DNA from: a virus
Taxonomy: Duplodnaviria; Heunggongvirae; Uroviricota; Caudoviricetes
Reading direction: 5' to 3' (one strand)
DNA length: 50,883 nucleotides
IMG/VR virus record: IMGVR_UViG_2874962485_000005
Part shown: piece by piece, positions 22,571 through 35,628 of the stretch
How positions within the stretch are numbered: position 1 is the first letter of the stretch
How the letters are laid out: every line of letters begins with the position of its first letter
Notes under the pieces: model-generated
What the model was told of the DNA's origin: nothing
The model's input: only the letters and a program-made list of their open reading frames with translations
Database searches by the model: none
Program-made: the position numbers and the translations under genes

Positions 22571-23424
22571 TGGCATTATTACTGGAGCCACTGCAGTTCA
22601 CCTTTATGAGTCACGCACTGCTGATTTCACTGGTAGTTTCCATACCCTGTGCGCTGCTGTCGGTCTTTCTGGTCCTGAAAGGTTGGGCACTGATGGGTGA
22701 CGCGATGAGTCATGCGGTTTTTCCTGGCATCGTGCTTACCTGGATTCTGGGGTTACCTCTGGCTACAGGGGCATTCGTCGCCGGAGTATTCTGCGCGGTG
22801 GCGACGGGATACCTGAAAGACAACAGCCGAATCAAGCAAGATACAGTTATGGGGATTGTTTTTTCTGGCATGTTTGCCGCAGGTCTGATCTTGTATATTG
22901 CAATTAAACCAGACGTACATCTTGACCATATTCTTTTCGGCGACATGCTCGGGATAACCATCGGCGACATAATCCAGACGGTGATTATTGCCGGGCTGGT
23001 TACACTTGTTATTAGCGTAAAATGGCGGGATTTTTTGCTGTTCAGCTTTGATTATCAACAGGCGCAGGTAAGCGGTTTGCATACGAGATGGCTGCATTAT
23101 GGGCTGCTGTGCATGGTTTCCCTGACCATTGTGGCGACGCTGAAAGCAGTAGGTATCATTCTCTCTATTTCTCTGCTCATTGCGCCTGGCGCCATTGCAG
23201 TACTCCTGACACAACGCTTTCATATTGCGCTCCTACTGGCGACTGGCATATCGGTAATAGTGTCAATGACTGGTGTCTGGCTGTCCTTTTTTATCGACAG
23301 CGCACCAGCTCCGACGATTGTCGTCTTATTCGCGGTCGTGTTCATCATGACGTTTACCGTTACCAGCATCAACGCACGCACAAAGGGAAACGCCCATACA
23401 CAGGATCTGTTATCACCCAATTAG
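22567..23424 (+). CDS. sitD: SitD ABC transporter permease
   Basis: 285-aa hydrophobic paralogue of SitC, overlapping its stop. Confidence 0.88.
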   Translation: MMALLLEPLQFTFMSHALLISLVVSIPCALLSVFLVLKGWALMGDAMSHAVFPGIVLTWILGLPLATGAFVAGVFCAVATGYLKDNSRIKQDTVMGIVFSGMFAAGLILYIAIKPDVHLDHILFGDMLGITIGDIIQTVIIAGLVTLVISVKWRDFLLFSFDYQQAQVSGLHTRWLHYGLLCMVSLTIVATLKAVGIILSISLLIAPGAIAVLLTQRFHIALLLATGISVIVSMTGVWLSFFIDSAPAPTIVVLFAVVFIMTFTVTSINARTKGNAHTQDLLSPN

Positions 23425-27360: not shown

Positions 27361-27375
27361 GGTAATGACTCCAAC

Positions 27376-27879
27376 TTACTGATAGTGTTTTATGTTCAGA
27401 TAATGCCCGATGACCTTGTCATGCAGCTCCACCGATTTTGAGAACGACAGTGACTTCCGTACCAGCCTTGCCAGATGTTGTCTCAGATTCAGATTATGTC
27501 GCTCAATGCGCTGAGTGTAACGCTTGCTGATAACGTGCAGCTTTCCCTTCAGGCGTGATTCATACAGCGGCCAGCCATCCGTCATCCATACCACGACCTC
27601 AAAGGCCGACAGCAGGCTCAGAAGACGCTCCAGTGTGGCCAGAGTGCGTTCACCGAAGACGTGCGCCACAACCGTCCTCCGTATCCTGTCATACGCGTAA
27701 AACAGCCAGCGCTGACGTGATTTAGCACCGACGTAGCCCCAATGTTCGTCCATTTCAGCGCAGACAATCACATCACTGCCCGGTTGTATGCGCGAGGTTA
27801 CCGACTGCGGCCTGAGTTTTTTAAGTGACGTAAAACCGTGTTGAGGCCAACGCCCATAATGCGTGCACTGGCACGACAT
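27376..27879 (-). CDS. insB: IS1 InsB
   Basis: 167-aa ORF (MSCQCTHYG variant). Confidence 0.9.
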
Positions 27880-28073
27880 CCGACGCCATTCATGGCCATA
27901 TCAATGATTTTCTGGTGCGTACCGGGCTGAGAGGCGGTGTAAGTGAACTGTAGTTGCCATGTTTTACGGCAATGAGAGCAGAGATAGCGCTGATGTCCGG
28001 CAGTGCTTTTGCCGTTACGCACCACGCCTTCAGTAGCGGAGCAGGAAGGACATCTGATGGAAATGGAAGCCAC
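27798..28073 (-). CDS. insA: IS1 InsA
   Basis: 91-aa ORF. Confidence 0.9.
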
Positions 28074-28128
28074 GCAAGCACCTTAAAATCACCATCATAC
28101 ACTAAATCAGTAAGTTGGCAGCATTACC

Positions 28129-28284
28129 CGCGTTAAGTTCTTCGAGCATCTTACGAATATCACGAAGGACATTTCGGTGCTCCTTGCCTGTCAGCTCAGC
28201 AATTTCAACTGAGGTCATGGACACAAGCTGGTCGAGGTTAATGATGCTGATTTCTTGTTGTGGTTGTTGTGGTTGTTGAGACAT
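28129..28284 (-). pseudogene. Rha-like phage regulatory protein, N-terminal 52 codons, 3' end removed by IS1
   Basis: MSQQPQQPQQEISIINLDQLVSMTSVEIAELTGKEHRNVLRDIRKMLEEL...; ORF 28102..28284 continues into the IS1 end. Confidence 0.5.
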
Positions 28285-28399
28285 CGCTTGATTTCCTTTT
28301 TGTTTGCACCCTGAAGTCGCACCCCCACTGACCTACTCAAAGTCCCCAAGCGAAGGGAGACCAGCAGGACAACAGGATGCAAACAGAATGACTTTGAGA

Positions 28400-28653
28400 T
28401 TGAATACTATGATGATGACGATGTAGCTGTGCGGAGCTACTGGGAGGGTCTCTCTAGGAGCCACTCTAGGGTCTCTCTAGGGTCTCTCTAGGCATCAGGC
28501 TATACGAAACTACAGGGCATCCTAAAGAATGACGTACAGGGCCATAGAGGACCATAGAGGGCCATAGAGTTAGCTTCTGGGGGTAATGCCTAGAGGAGAC
28601 CCTAGAGAGACCTATAGAGAGACCATAGAGAAGACCTATAGAGAGACCCTAGA
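28400..28653. repeat. Short tandem repeat arrays (GGGTCTCTCTA x3, CCATAGAGG x3, GAGACC(C/A)TAGAGA x5)
   Basis: Direct reading; continues across the IS911-like insertion into 34880..34900. Confidence 0.75.
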
Positions 28654-28661
28654 TGAAGTGG

Positions 28662-32004
<3,343 letters not shown>

Positions 32005-32022
32005 TCAGAACCGTATTGATAT

Positions 32023-33594
32023 TTACTGAGAGCTCAGATCAACTTTCCAGGGCAACAGATCGCGTACCCGGTTTGCCGGCCAGTCCTGGATATGTTCAAT
32101 GACGTAACGCAGCCACTTTTCTGGCTCCACATTGTTCAGACGGCATGTGCCGATCAGCGAGTACAACACCGCCGCATGTTCACCACCGCTGTCGGAACCC
32201 GCGAACAGCCAGTTTTTCCGGCCTACGGCCACTCCCCGTAAGGCGTTCTCTGCGATGTTGTTGTCGATTTCCACCCAGCCATTACTGCAGTACACGTTCA
32301 GGGCCTCCCACTGTTTCAGCAGGTATGCGAACGCTTTTGCCGTATCCGAGTGACGCGACAGTGTTTTCATCTGAGTCTGTATCCAGTCATACAGTGACTG
32401 CATCAGTGGCGCAGCTCTGGCTTTTCTTGCTGCCAGACGCTGTTCTGCTGAACATCCCCGGACTTCTGCCTCGATGGCATACAGTTCACCGATACGCTGC
32501 AGGGCTTCCGTGGTGATATCGGTTGGCGCTCTTGCATGCACATCGTGGATTTTTCTCCGGGCATGGGCCATACACGCGGCTTCCGTTATTCTGCCGGATT
32601 CGTATAACGCCCGGTAGCCACCGTAAGCATCGGCCTGAAGCACTCCGCTGTAACCGGCCAGGTGATTTTGTGGATGGATGCCTTTCCGGTCCGGGCTGTA
32701 CGCGAACCAGACCGCCGCAGGCATCTGTGAACCGGCGTTACGGTCATCACGGACGTAGACCCACAGCCGGGCTGTCCGGGTTTTACCGCTGCCCGGCTCC
32801 TGGACCGGGACGGGGATATCATCGGCATGGACTTTACCGGGCATCAGCACATACTGGCGCAGGACGTCATACAGTGGCTCCAGCAGTTCAGCAACAGCAC
32901 CTGTCCAGCGCCCCAGTGTGGCACGGCTCAGCTCCACGCCCTGACGACGGTATATTTCTGACTGGCGGTATAACGGCAGATGGTCTGCATATTTCCCGGT
33001 GACAACATGGGCAAGAAGCCCCGCTCCGGCATAACTGCGTGCAATGGGTTTTGAAGGTACTGGTGCCTGCACGATATGGTCGCACCGGCAACAGGCCAGT
33101 TTCGGACGTTGTGTTTCGATAACCTTAAAGGCGCTGCTGATAAGCTCCAGTTGCTCTGACACATCACATCCCAGAGAACTGAGTTCACCACCACAGGCAG
33201 GACAGCATTCCTCTTCCGGCCGGATGACCCGGGTTTCACGGGGAAGTGAGGCCGGTAACAGTTTACGGGCTGAAGACTGGCGCAGGGCGGATGGCAGTAC
33301 CGGGTCATATTGCTCACCCAGCGTTTCCGCCATTTCTTCCTGAAGTGCGCTGATTCGCTCCTGTGCTTCCTGTATCTGTCGTTCGGTTTTTGCGCGAAGT
33401 TTTTCTGAGCTTTTACCGAACTGCATGCGCTGCAGTTTTGCAACCAGCGCCTTCAGCCGGTTGATTTCGGAAGCATAAGCCGCCACCCGCAGTGAGAGCA
33501 GGCGGTTATATTCGGCCATCTGGCGGATGGTGTCCTGTTGCGTCTGCAACAGTGCCCGCAGGCGGGCATTCTCATGAGCAAGTGAGGTGTCCAT
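32023..33594 (-). CDS. IS66-family transposase (OrfC)
   Basis: 523-aa ORF with N-terminal coiled coil and CxxC...CxxC zinc-binding motif. Confidence 0.85.
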
Positions 33595-33613
33595 ATCCTC
33601 ACTTTACAACGGG

Positions 33614-33961
33614 TTATATGCGGATTCCAGCGCGTTCCGTTCGTTTCGGGTGCTTCCAGTTGATACCTTCAAGAAGCATGGATAACTGAGCCGGAGTAAG
33701 GTGCACCTTGCCGTCACGGGTGACTGGCCAGACGAAGCGGCCCCGCTCCAGGCGTTTGGTGAAGAGGCACAGTCCGTCACTGTCAGCCCACAACACTTTT
33801 ATCTGGTCACCCCGGCGTCCGCGGAAGATGAACAGGTGTCCGGAGAACGGGTCATCCTTCAGGACGTTCTGAACTTTTGAGGCCAGGCCGTTAAAGCCAT
33901 TTCGCATATCGGTGATACCGGCAACCAGCCAGATACGCGAACCTGCAGGGAGAGATATCAT
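33614..33961 (-). CDS. IS66-family TnpB (OrfB)
   Basis: 115-aa ORF MISLPAGSRIWLVAGITDMRNGFNGLASKVQNVL... Confidence 0.85.
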   Translation of the reverse strand: MISLPAGSRIWLVAGITDMRNGFNGLASKVQNVLKDDPFSGHLFIFRGRRGDQIKVLWADSDGLCLFTKRLERGRFVWPVTRDGKVHLTPAQLSMLLEGINWKHPKRTERAGIRI

Positions 33962-34638
33962 CAGTGGCTGCTCCCTTTTATTTCGCGGATAAGTGTCTGT
34001 AATAACGCCGGCGTCAGTTTACCTTTAAGCCTGAGAGTTCCGGCCGGCAGAACCAGCTCACAACACAGACTGTCGGACGGTGTATTTATCTGCTCTGGTT
34101 CCTGTGCCGGAGCCGGGATTTTATTATCCGGCTCCGGCGTTAACGTCACGGGAAGCAGTGCCGGCATATTTTTTCCGGAAGGCAGCAGGCCACCTTTCCG
34201 GTATTGATGGCGCCAGTTGAAGAGCAGGTTATCGTTGATTCCGTTTTCCCGGGCGATCTGCGCCACACAGGCTCCGGGCTGCAGTGACTGCTCCACTAAG
34301 GCGATTTTAAACTCATAAGGGAAGTTGGGCCGCCGGGGACGTTTTTTTACCACGGGGGCTTCGGATATAACGGTGCTTTCAGGACGTACGACTGGTACCG
34401 TGGAAAATTGTCCGTAAAGGCAGGCATCAAGTTCCTGCTCCGACATGCCTGAGGGCAAAGGCCACGAAAGGCCAGCTCTCCGAAAGCGCACAAACATACT
34501 ACAAACTGTTGATTTTGGTACACCCAGGCGACGCCCGGCCACAACCCGGGGTAAATGTTCTTCAAAGTGAAGACGTAAAGCTTCAGTGATCCAGGTCCGG
34601 TGTTTCATACGATAGTGTCCATTAAAAATGATGGACAT
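33961..34638 (-). CDS. IS66-family OrfA (HTH)
   Basis: 225-aa ORF overlapping tnpB start. Confidence 0.75.
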   Translation of the reverse strand: MSIIFNGHYRMKHRTWITEALRLHFEEHLPRVVAGRRLGVPKSTVCSMFVRFRRAGLSWPLPSGMSEQELDACLYGQFSTVPVVRPESTVISEAPVVKKRPRRPNFPYEFKIALVEQSLQPGACVAQIARENGINDNLLFNWRHQYRKGGLLPSGKNMPALLPVTLTPEPDNKIPAPAQEPEQINTPSDSLCCELVLPAGTLRLKGKLTPALLQTLIREIKGSSH

Positions 34639-34691
34639 TATTTTTGTAGAGCCGGAGGAAACAGACCAGACGGTTTAAATGAGCCGGTTAC

Positions 34692-34807
34692 ATTGTGGAA
34701 AGGCCAACATCCATAGCTTTGGCGGCATCTGCCACCGTGTATTTCTGGTCAACAACCAGTTGAGCGGATTCGCGTTTAAACTCTGCGCTAAAATTTCTTT
34801 TTTTCAT
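34692..34807 (-). pseudogene. IS911-like orfA, N-terminal fragment
   Basis: [39 protein letters not shown] then IS66-family insertion. Confidence 0.8.
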
Positions 34808-34899
34808 TGGAGCACCTGTGTTGTTCTGAGGTGAGCATATCACCTCTGTTCAGGTGGCCAAATTCAGTGTGCCACTTCAAGAGAAGACCTATAGGTTTG

Positions 34900-35110
34900 G
34901 TGATTGATTATTATAAATATCATCACCCCTTAAGGTATTCCCTTAGAGTTAATCTTTAATTGGTCTTTAATTAAATCTTTTATTTAATACTTAAAGTTAA
35001 TCTCTAATTGTGTCTTTAAGTTAACTTTAAGTAATACTATAAGTTAATCTTTAATTGTGTCTTTAAGTTAACTTTAAGTTAAGCCCCTGTAGGGACTAGA
35101 GACCATAATT
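34900..35110. repeat. AT-rich array of TTAAAG-containing direct repeats (two ~45-bp units plus shorter copies)
   Basis: ACTTAAAGTTAATCT(C/T)TAATTGTGTCTTTAAGTTAACTTTAAGT repeated. Confidence 0.7.
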
Positions 35111-35276
35111 AAGATGATTGTGTCTTATTGCTATTCACTTATCGACTGACCCAGAGCACACAGGAAGCATTCACTTTAAGTAGAACGCTTGGTGTCTGTA
35201 ATTGGTCATCCCGCCCCTGAAAGGATGCGATAAGTTACGGTTAGTTGTCCTAGAAGAGAAAACTTTTTGTGTCCCT

Positions 35277-35299
35277 TCTCCCTATAGTGAGTCGTATTA
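35277..35299 (-). promoter_or_regulatory. T7-class (single-subunit RNAP) promoter, copy 1
   Basis: Minus strand reads TAATACGACTCACTATAGGGAGA (23/23 match to consensus -17..+6); fires toward lower coordinates. Confidence 0.8.
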
Positions 35300-35396
35300 A
35301 TTATCCTTGACAAGTAGAGAAAACCATGAGTCAAAAACATGACCACACAGGTCTGTAGTAAGTGTCATCCTAGAAGAGAAAACTTTTTGTGTCCCT

Positions 35397-35419
35397 TCTC
35401 CCTATAGTGAGTCGTATTA
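35397..35419 (-). promoter_or_regulatory. T7-class promoter, copy 2
   Basis: Identical 23-mer, 120 bp from copy 1. Confidence 0.8.
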
Positions 35420-35517
35420 ATTACCCCTTGACAAGCAGAGAAAACTATGAGTCAAAAACATGACCGCACAGGTCTGTAGTAAGTGTCATCCTAGAAGAGA
35501 AAACTTTTTGTGTCCCT

Positions 35518-35540
35518 TCTCCCTATAGTGAGTCGTATTA
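35518..35540 (-). promoter_or_regulatory. T7-class promoter, copy 3
   Basis: Identical 23-mer, 121 bp from copy 2. Confidence 0.8.
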
Positions 35541-35628
35541 ATTATCCCTTGACAAGCAGAGAAAACTATGAGTCAAAAACATGACCACACAGGTCTGTAG
35601 TAAGTGTCATCCTAGACTATGGTCTCCT

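Follow-up and report, generated by a model that had tools for sequence, protein, structure and literature searches.

The viral record IMGVR_UViG_2874962485_000005, a DNA stretch of 50,883 nt analyzed here at its full length (the window), carries three perfect copies of the class III promoter of phage T7 immediately behind the integrase gene of a small island inserted at a tRNA gene. Homologous islands in enterobacteria and Pseudomonas carry, at the same position, other promoters for single-subunit phage RNA polymerases, and these appear to match the T7-like phages of each host. With a probability of roughly 0.58, we propose from these comparisons that the island is a satellite-like parasite of T7-like phages (Autographiviridae, Studiervirinae) and that the promoters serve as its infection sensor and cis-control module. 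The underlying observations are exact, conserved and host-matched phage polymerase promoters, a mobile element that is bounded by attachment (att) sites and sometimes circular, a core gene with a capsid fold, an origin-like block, and anti-T7 cargo. That the promoters are functional and let a mobile island sense T7-like phages, a statement common to the satellite proposal and to a purely defensive one, is in our judgment very probable.

Three perfect T7 promoters behind the integrase gene

The 23-mer TAATACGACTCACTATAGGGAGA occurs three times in the window, always on the minus strand, and agrees with the T7 class III consensus (-17 to +6) at 23 of 23 positions. Copy 1 lies at 35518 to 35540, with +1 at the G at 35523, copy 2 at 35397 to 35419, and copy 3, the closest to the downstream elements, at 35277 to 35299. 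Base for base, the sequence is that of phi6.5, phi9, phi10, phi13, phi17 and phiOR, the six strongest T7 promoters. There is no fourth site in the window even at up to three mismatches, and none of 100 dinucleotide shuffles held any match at that threshold (chance expectation, 0.00). Each promoter sits in one unit of a tandem array (P1, 35248 to 35616, minus strand), for which Tandem Repeats Finder gave a period of 121, 3.1 copies, and 97% matches. An earlier description of the window made from its letters and open reading frames (ORFs), the sequence-only reading, had claimed three 23/23 promoters on the minus strand in near-identical units of about 120 bp, and both claims are confirmed.

P1 begins 12 nt past the stop codon of the integrase gene (35629 to 37233, minus strand), which encodes a 534-residue tyrosine recombinase with a DUF6538-like N terminus (PF00589; E, 2e-17). 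The promoters are co-oriented with the integrase gene and point away from it into non-coding, repeat-rich DNA, which extends over 749 bp to a copy of the insertion sequence (IS) IS911. Once a 6.2-kb IS composite is removed in silico, this region measures about 1.1 kb, in agreement with the 1.1 kb of non-coding repeats that had been placed in front of the promoters. The remark that the window encodes no T7-like polymerase also held, since tblastn with twelve T7 proteins, including the gp1 RNA polymerase, gave no match at E<1e-3; homologues of the T7-like DNA polymerase, portal, terminase and capsid are likewise missing from the window.

Across 13 units from seven loci, the P1 segment from -17 to +21 is invariant, the only exception being one unit of locus L050 in which the G at +2 is an A, while the flanks of the units vary and the copy number ranges from 1 to 3. 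The class III 23-mer is in established use in any sequence context, and initiation by T7 RNA polymerase is expected from it. Two other candidate signals were dropped: a sigma-70 promoter picked by eye within the 121-bp unit, because its spacing was wrong, and a class II T7 terminator or pause site (ATCTGTT) in the leader of the first island gene, where only the imperfect ATTCTGTTT is present.

The array is a natural chromosomal element

By megablast, 364 of the 5,426 complete E. coli genomes contain the 2.4-kb region comprising integrase and array, and in each of them it is chromosomal. The promoter array unit itself occurs in 58 of these 5,426 complete chromosomes, always at a tRNA-Gly gene and never annotated, and in no plasmid; the E. 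coli element sits at the chromosomal tRNA-Gly that adjoins actS/ygeR. Island relatives are also present in IMG isolates and metagenome contigs. Megablast against 50,697 phage records gave no match, and the more distant blastn comparison with phage records matched the promoter plus 10 to 40 nt and nothing more.

Because expression vectors use the TAATACGACTCACTATAGGGAGA 23-mer, the array might come from a contaminating vector, from faulty assembly, or from a repeat that is neutral or arose by chance, and a vector match or assembly artefact was one of the outcomes by which the sequence-only reading would have been overturned. These explanations are refuted by the present results, and their probability is practically nil. 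The array flanks match no vector-like plasmid, and the sole plasmid match of the region is the integrase. The unit stands at the same tRNA-Gly site in 58 independent complete genomes and recurs in isolates and metagenomes, chance predicts no copy, and the promoter is kept while its flanks diverge.

The promoter type changes with the phages of the host

Homologous islands carry other single-subunit RNA polymerase promoters at the P1 position, and judging from the phage records these are matched to the local T7-like phages. In the E. coli/Shigella islands L007 and L008 the promoter is ACTAAACTATCACTATAGGGAGA, which is identical at 23 of 23 positions to the capsid-gene promoter of Kayfunavirus Ro45lw. 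K. pneumoniae islands, including that of ATCC 13883, carry AATTAGGGCACACTATAGGGAGA (K11 type) in tandem beside a T7-type promoter; the K11-type query matched 414 phage records, of which 371 belong to Klebsiella phages with 10 to 11 sites each. The Pseudomonas islands use the gh-1-type TTAAAAACCCTCACTATGGC, for which Pseudomonas T7-like phages make up 77 of the 88 matching phage records (about 10 sites each). Pectobacterium islands have the T3-like AATTAACCCTCACTATAGGGAGA. Yersinia islands have five T7-variant promoters, and the Yersinia-type variant occurs at 1 to 2 sites in each of about 20 T7-like viral contigs of 38 to 41 kb. Finally, the circular metagenomic contig L023 carries TTAAGACTCACTA(T/A)AGGGAGA, which has at least five sites in one 41-kb T7-like viral contig. 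One 7.7-kb IMG/VR contig with a Yersinia-type promoter (L049), tried as a further island, was rejected as a T7-like phage fragment.

Among the metagenome contigs that contain the core of B1, a conserved element downstream of P1, 20 of 22 have 1 to 3 such promoters in the 500 nt that precede it. Single metagenome arrays often combine several specificities, for example those of the K11 type, the T7 type and a third, AATTAGGTAGCAC type, which gives the impression that the island listens for several phage polymerases at once. Such swapping of specificity among homologous neighbours is hard to explain unless phage polymerases use the promoters, and their match to the T7-like phages of each host suggests that the island is probably switched on by phage RNA polymerase.

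Stacked arrays of K11-type, T7-type and AATTAGGTAGCACTATAGGGAGA-type promoters are also seen at L053 5500-5616 (K. pneumoniae ATCC 13883) and L017 6467-6517, and stacked arrays of mixed specificity at the metagenome loci L094, L097, L099, L107, L110, L112 and L113. In L004, positions 11823 to 11870 hold AATCAATACG three times, followed by the degenerate T7-like promoter CAATACGACTTACTAATAGGAGA (5 mismatches), which precedes the KilA-N gene by about 240 nt. In L008, this position, that of the second promoter (P2), is occupied by a perfect Kayfunavirus promoter.

Intact islands are compact, mobile and short of virion and replication genes

Island relatives were collected via the integrase and via the largest core protein. 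In E. coli 21AR0133 (L001), repetition of the 3' 18 nt of tRNA-Gly delimits a 7.3-kb island that includes an IS5 copy, and in E. coli FT130 (L004) the same 18-nt repeat delimits a minimal element of 4.3 kb; intact relatives measure only 4 to 7 kb. The common order is integrase, optional cargo, 0.7 to 1.6 kb of non-coding DNA, a regulator, a gene for about 60 residues, DUF6971, and a protein of 330 to 400 residues. The regulator slot holds a Rha, KilA-N, Bro-N or ANT-type gene, and the non-coding module runs from the promoter array through a structured element of about 100 nt and an AT-rich block to the second promoter. The minimal E. coli variants (L004, L051, L052) are reduced to integrase, cis module, one KilA-N gene and one small membrane ORF.

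The enterobacterial hosts are Escherichia/Shigella, Klebsiella, Yersinia, Pectobacterium, Serratia, Erwinia, Citrobacter, Dickeya and Pantoea, and distant members (32 to 38% identity, integrase kept) occur in about 38 Pseudomonas/Stutzerimonas species. Integrase orthologues are 83 to 100% identical to that of the window in E. coli and IMG isolates, 87% in Klebsiella, and 30 to 35% in the Pseudomonas islands. The compact gene order is constant from E. coli to Pseudomonas and includes no RNA polymerase, DNA polymerase, portal or terminase gene. Likewise, Pfam and PHROG scans of the island proteins found no AlpA, primase-replicase, small terminase subunit (TerS) or complete head module (capsid, portal, protease, adaptors).

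Metagenomic contig L023 closes into a circle of 6,487 bp through an exact terminal overlap of 141 nt, and a second metagenomic contig, L024, spans the same capsid-to-integrase (attP) junction; the element therefore occurs either in excised form or as tandem copies. No further circular forms were seen among the small separate contigs of Pseudomonas assemblies (L073, L077). The family thus has an integrase, att-bounded elements (L001, L004) and an excised form (L023), together with an incomplete virion and replication set that consists of integrase, regulator, two small proteins and one capsid-like gene. Because the full virion and replication gene set is absent, the island would depend on a helper.

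The AlphaFold model of the largest island protein (pLDDT 72) matches only HK97-fold capsid proteins and encapsulins in Foldseek, with a probability of 1.0, E values of 1e-7 to 1e-8, and TM-scores of 0.3 to 0.5, and the matches include T7-like capsids and the SaPIbov5 procapsid. On this model, the protein may be described as capsid-like with an HK97 fold; it has no sequence similarity to T7 gp10. DUF6971 (136 residues) is the crystallised, uncharacterised Shigella protein SF216 (PDB 5EUR). It was considered as a TerS or scaffold protein and dropped, as the structure search led back to nothing but the crystal structure of DUF6971 itself, 5EUR. The 373-, 62- and 163-residue island proteins had no match in Pfam, PHROG or PADLOC.

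Two side observations concern the surroundings of these genes. At the same tRNA-Gly att site in 21AR0133, an unrelated 10-kb island stands in tandem (L001 4885-15066), with a 650-residue integrase, a recombinase, DUF4468 and NIPSNAP. In L023, positions 380 to 950, between integrase and P1, hold an unannotated ORF-like region that by eye is Bro-N/ANT-like, in the place taken elsewhere by the defence gene described below. The cargo slot between integrase and P1 is variable.

A conserved non-coding module includes an AT-rich block similar to T7 origin regions

Just downstream of P1 lies B1, a conserved element of about 100 nt with nested stems (35137 to 35235, minus strand). Its outer stem is ACTTATCG/CGATAAGT and its inner stem GATGACC/GGTCAGTC, and its sequence is 80 to 98% identical in E. 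coli, Klebsiella, Yersinia and L023, independent of the promoter type. In an alignment of nine sequences, the fold comprises 33 pairs with 95.5% of cells paired, against 27 to 42% in slid controls, and 7 pairs show compensatory change, a count reached by none of 500 shuffles. These values are suggestive of the nested-stem structure, short of proof, and B1 is a candidate for either a structured transcript or a single-stranded DNA site. The leader 5' of the first island gene (28285 to 28400, minus strand) is 80 to 92% identical in the E. coli, Klebsiella, Yersinia and Kayfunavirus-type islands; a consensus hairpin is predicted for it, with weak covariation. No Rfam family matches B1, the leader or the rest of the non-coding module.

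B1 is followed by an AT-rich block of 24% GC with TTAACTTAAAGAC-type short repeats identified by Tandem Repeats Finder (34935 to 35095, minus strand). The block was scanned by Smith-Waterman alignment against the whole T7 genome in 794 tiles on both strands. Its only strong matches are at about 413 to 495, just after phiOL, and at 5929 to 6017, just after phi1.1B, both in the same orientation, with scores of 38 to 48 against a mean of 17 and a standard deviation of 4. In T7, phi1.1A/B and the adjoining AT-rich region form the primary origin, and phiOL marks a secondary origin. The same type of tile comparison of the non-coding blocks of the Kayfunavirus-type islands with Ro45lw gave no significant match.

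The T7 primase pentamers GGGTC, TGGTC and GTGTC number 25 in the window module against 5.8 ± 2.2 expected, a 4- to 5-fold excess that is inflated by the repeats and is similar in relatives. Of all pentamers, TGGTC/GACCA takes rank 1 to 3 in three of the five modules, the non-repetitive Kayfunavirus-type ones among these, and rank 20 in the window module; these counts too are repeat-inflated. Beyond the AT-rich block, the hairpin GGTGATGAT...ATCAATCACC (34899 to 34927, minus strand) is kept in the E. coli, Klebsiella, L026 and L023 relatives. It bears a modest resemblance (z about 4) to GGTGATTATATTGTATTAGTATCACC, which lies about 70 nt downstream of T7 phiOR.

Many islands carry an anti-T7 gene, and the Yersinia island a T7 virion protein homologue

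In many relatives the cargo between integrase and promoters is the PD-T7-4/RAZR gene (HEPN/zinc-finger, DUF4145), matched at full length with an E value of 7.5e-97. It lies immediately upstream of the array and overlaps the integrase 3' end (L015 2170-2811, L007 1601-2260, L017 5831-6463, L053 4870-5484), and in addition to these four loci it is carried by 13 metagenome contigs. It is an optional cargo that the window lacks, the array there coming directly after the integrase stop codon. PD-T7-4 was isolated by functional selection against T7, and its frequent overlap with an integrase gene was noted (bioRxiv 10.1101/2022.05.12.491691); now named RAZR, it is an abortive-infection RNase activated by the portal ring of T7 and T3 (PMC13017515). 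Both papers deal with the protein, and neither mentions the island or its native T7 promoters. The island context of RAZR and the adjacent native T7 promoters thus appear to be unreported.

At L018 10503-15534, the island of Yersinia enterocolitica HF933424 encodes a protein homologous over its full length to gp16, an internal virion protein of T7 (43% identity over 1,389 residues); a gene for an HNH_3 endonuclease comes next. A second copy of the island leader precedes this gp16-like gene, and another phage-type promoter follows it (about 15589).

The window holds a broken copy of the island

The account given in the sequence-only reading omitted that the window copy is a decayed remnant. On the minus strand, the order in the window is tRNA array, integrase, P1, B1, AT-rich block, hairpin, IS911 pile, repeats, leader and the start of a Rha gene. 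The integration site is tRNA-Gly(tcc) (37348 to 37422, minus strand; ARAGORN and Rfam), whose 3' end abuts the island. It is the last gene of a Met-Arg-Thr-Gly tRNA array within a lambdoid prophage remnant.

The non-coding module is interrupted by foreign DNA that does not belong to the island, an IS911 with a 3-bp AGA target duplication (28654 to 34879). This 6.2-kb composite contains, within IS911, an IS66-family element with three ORFs (32023 to 34638) and a group II intron (reverse transcriptase, 29231 to 30754; Rfam domain match, 29141 to 29227). Its removal in silico rejoins sequence that is colinear with L001 and L004. Beyond it, arrays of GACCCTAGAGAGA- and GGCCATAGAG-type short repeats continue the module (28401 to 28653, minus strand), as seen by comparison with L004 11820-12000, and P2, known from the relatives, is deleted. 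The leader then precedes the first 52 or so codons of a Rha-family gene (28130 to 28284, minus strand). Its tblastn matches to the Rha proteins of L001 and L008 (88 to 95% identity) end at 28129, where the gene is cut by an IS1 (27361 to 28129).

The other core genes, i.e., the small ORF, DUF6971 and the capsid-like gene, were not found in the window, nor was a second att copy; with only one att end remaining, the far end of the island is taken as lost from the window. Core genes were also sought in the same-lineage loci L005, L006 and L009, all of which are decayed, and L009, a near-identical locus from a related strain, is equally so. Since no further island parts are present, the window copy is an IS-degraded relic that retains only the integrase, the promoter/B1/AT-rich module and 52 Rha codons.

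Some features of the surroundings were noted in passing. The Met-Arg-Thr-Gly array is tightly packed (37348 to 37658), and the lambdoid remnant (37867 to 47298) includes ORF6N, DUF1133 Q-like, DUF1367, HNH, DUF977 and DnaC-like genes. The window island is therefore an island inside a prophage, whereas the E. coli relatives use the chromosomal tRNA-Gly beside actS; the Kayfunavirus-type island L008 is integrated in the same prophage tRNA array as the window island. Besides the IS911/IS66/IS1 pile there are many further IS copies, a Shigella-like load, and positions 19975 to 23424 hold four co-directional ORFs (304, 275, 285 and 285 residues) in the pattern of an ABC metal-transporter operon.

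Proposed mechanism and alternative explanations

It is established that host RNA polymerase does not use T7-type promoters, and for this reason the module would be silent in an uninfected cell. Upon infection by a T7-like phage, the single-subunit RNA polymerase of the phage should fire from the tandem promoters, as their exact identity implies. Transcription would then run through B1 and the AT-rich block into the operon of Rha/KilA-N, the 60-residue gene, DUF6971 and the capsid-like protein, so that the infection would supply the polymerase that turns on the island operon, and the island would be on only in infected cells. T7 origins consist of a phage promoter followed by AT-rich DNA, and by analogy these transcripts would probably also serve as primers when the phage replisome replicates the island. 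More speculatively, the capsid-like protein, and in Yersinia also the gp16 homologue, might take part in or interfere with virion assembly, after which the island would be transferred; its packaging, possibly in capsids modified by its own capsid-like protein, is likewise a speculation. There is perhaps an even chance that the islands form a widespread and undescribed satellite family of virulent T7-like phages, natural "T7 phagemids" whose promoter arrays act both as sensor and as origin, whose own capsid protein and, in Yersinia, own gp16 serve to ride in or sabotage helper particles, and which ferry anti-T7 genes such as RAZR.

Several points weigh against a satellite-like parasite. The window copy lacks every gene that its promoters should drive, and some 190 nt separate the AT-rich block from the last promoter, compared with about 7 nt in T7. 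Repeats inflate the enrichment of primase pentamers, as mentioned above. Blastn-short of the whole non-coding modules found no terminal-repeat or pac similarity to T7 or Ro45lw, as the promoters alone match, and terminase, portal and excisionase genes were not found in the islands. The capsid-fold match has low TM-scores and comes from a model of modest pLDDT, and a single closed circular contig stands beside 22 further metagenome contigs that showed none. Moreover, some islands carry RAZR, and abortive infection triggered by the T7 portal would hurt a satellite that depends on T7.

The missing terminase, portal and recognisable pac site or terminal repeat would suit an island devoted to defence alone, in which the promoters are an infection-triggered switch for interfering genes, such as a Rha/KilA-N DNA binder or a capsid-like protein that poisons head assembly, beside abortive-infection cargo. 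Such an island would spread by other routes and would never be packaged by a phage; the anti-T7 gene between integrase and promoters in many relatives and the minimal variants with little more than integrase, cis module and KilA-N gene are in line with it. However, its core proteins have no PADLOC match, and a T7-origin-like AT-rich block and a conserved structured element would be superfluous for a simple switch. The 6.5-kb circle, the presence of an integrase and the broad horizontal spread speak for a life cycle that is mobile and autonomous, and the Yersinia gp16 homologue suggests a role inside virions. We consider defence alone the main rival, though clearly less likely than a satellite. 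The interpretation given in the sequence-only reading is thus partly supported. Of its two explanations, the comparative evidence points to the satellite transcribed only with a T7-like helper: host-matched promoters, integrase, circular form and capsid-like gene favour it, with defence alone as the competing possibility.

The other explanation offered there, a remnant of an integrated temperate T7-like phage with promoters left over from its transcription units, was not upheld, and we regard it as very improbable. An integrase does adjoin T7 promoters, integrase-bearing T7-like phages such as LUZ100 exist (PMC10134795), and a gp16 homologue together with an HNH gene is found in the Yersinia relative. 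This reading was nevertheless rejected because the window holds no homologue of the twelve T7 proteins searched. The relatives, moreover, are complete at 4 to 7 kb with att repeats or as a closed circle, and keep the same compact order from E. coli to Pseudomonas without polymerase, portal or terminase genes. Their capsid-like protein is not detectably related in sequence to gp10, and two or three promoter specificities in a single array are needed by no phage.

Comparison with known systems and significance

A satellite-like parasite of T7-like phages would have its closest engineered counterpart in the T7 phagemids or transducing plasmids (Chung and Hinkle 1990, as cited in PMC13236587), which are small circular DNA that is silent until T7 infection. 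T7 is known to replicate plasmids that have a T7 origin, a pac site and a terminal repeat, to package them as concatemers and to transduce them (PMC13236587); replication of the transducing plasmids starts from a T7 promoter and AT-rich origin. Pausing of T7 RNA polymerase at the concatemer junction recruits terminase (PMC3276506). Like these phagemids, the island has a promoter and an origin-like AT-rich block; unlike them, it is natural, integrated in the chromosome by its own integrase and equipped with genes of its own, and no T7 terminal repeat or concatemer junction was recognised in it.

Phage-inducible chromosomal islands (PICIs), including the capsid-forming ones and SaPIbov5 (Ccm, a capsid-protein homologue), resemble the island in bearing an integrase, being silent until a helper infects, and having an HK97-fold capsid-like gene and defence cargo. 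Unlike PICIs, the island is far smaller (4 to 7 kb), lacks AlpA, primase-replicase, TerS and a complete head module, and has a virulent T7-like podophage as its presumed helper. PICIs are induced by de-repression, whereas induction of the island would be read from helper polymerase promoters. The virulent-phage satellites PLE (Vibrio cholerae) and PICMI (marine vibrios) are also small islands that respond to strictly lytic phages and use their replication machinery, and PICMI is similarly minimal, with at most 12 genes (PMC9966839). Their genes are unrelated and their hosts are others, and phage polymerase promoters are unreported for them. P4 is helper responsive through late promoters activated by P2 Ogr and, like the island, carries defence hotspots as cargo (PMC9122126). 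It differs in that it relies on host RNA polymerase together with an activator and encodes a replicase of its own as well as the Sid scaffold, while the island has complete helper polymerase promoters.

A limited literature search returned no paper that describes T7-type promoters native to bacterial islands, satellites that exploit T7-like phages, or DUF6971. Phage-inducible islands and satellites are already known as a general kind. What is new is the helper class (virulent Autographiviridae), the sensing through complete helper polymerase promoters that can be swapped and stacked, and the gene set.

As far as we know, T7 and the phages related to it are the standard textbook example of virulent phages that go "unparasitised", and natural bacterial chromosomes are assumed to lack T7 promoters, an assumption on which the orthogonality of T7 expression systems rests. 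If our proposal is true, about 1% of complete E. coli genomes and the K. pneumoniae type strain would carry perfect T7 or K11 promoters in a mobile island, and the anti-T7 system RAZR/PD-T7-4 would gain a genomic home. The islands would offer a natural template for helper-specific phagemids and phage-triggered gene circuits, and they would be relevant where T7-like phages of Klebsiella, E. coli and Pseudomonas are used in phage therapy. Above all, T7-like phages would have dedicated genomic parasites, or face dedicated defences, that read the phage's own polymerase.

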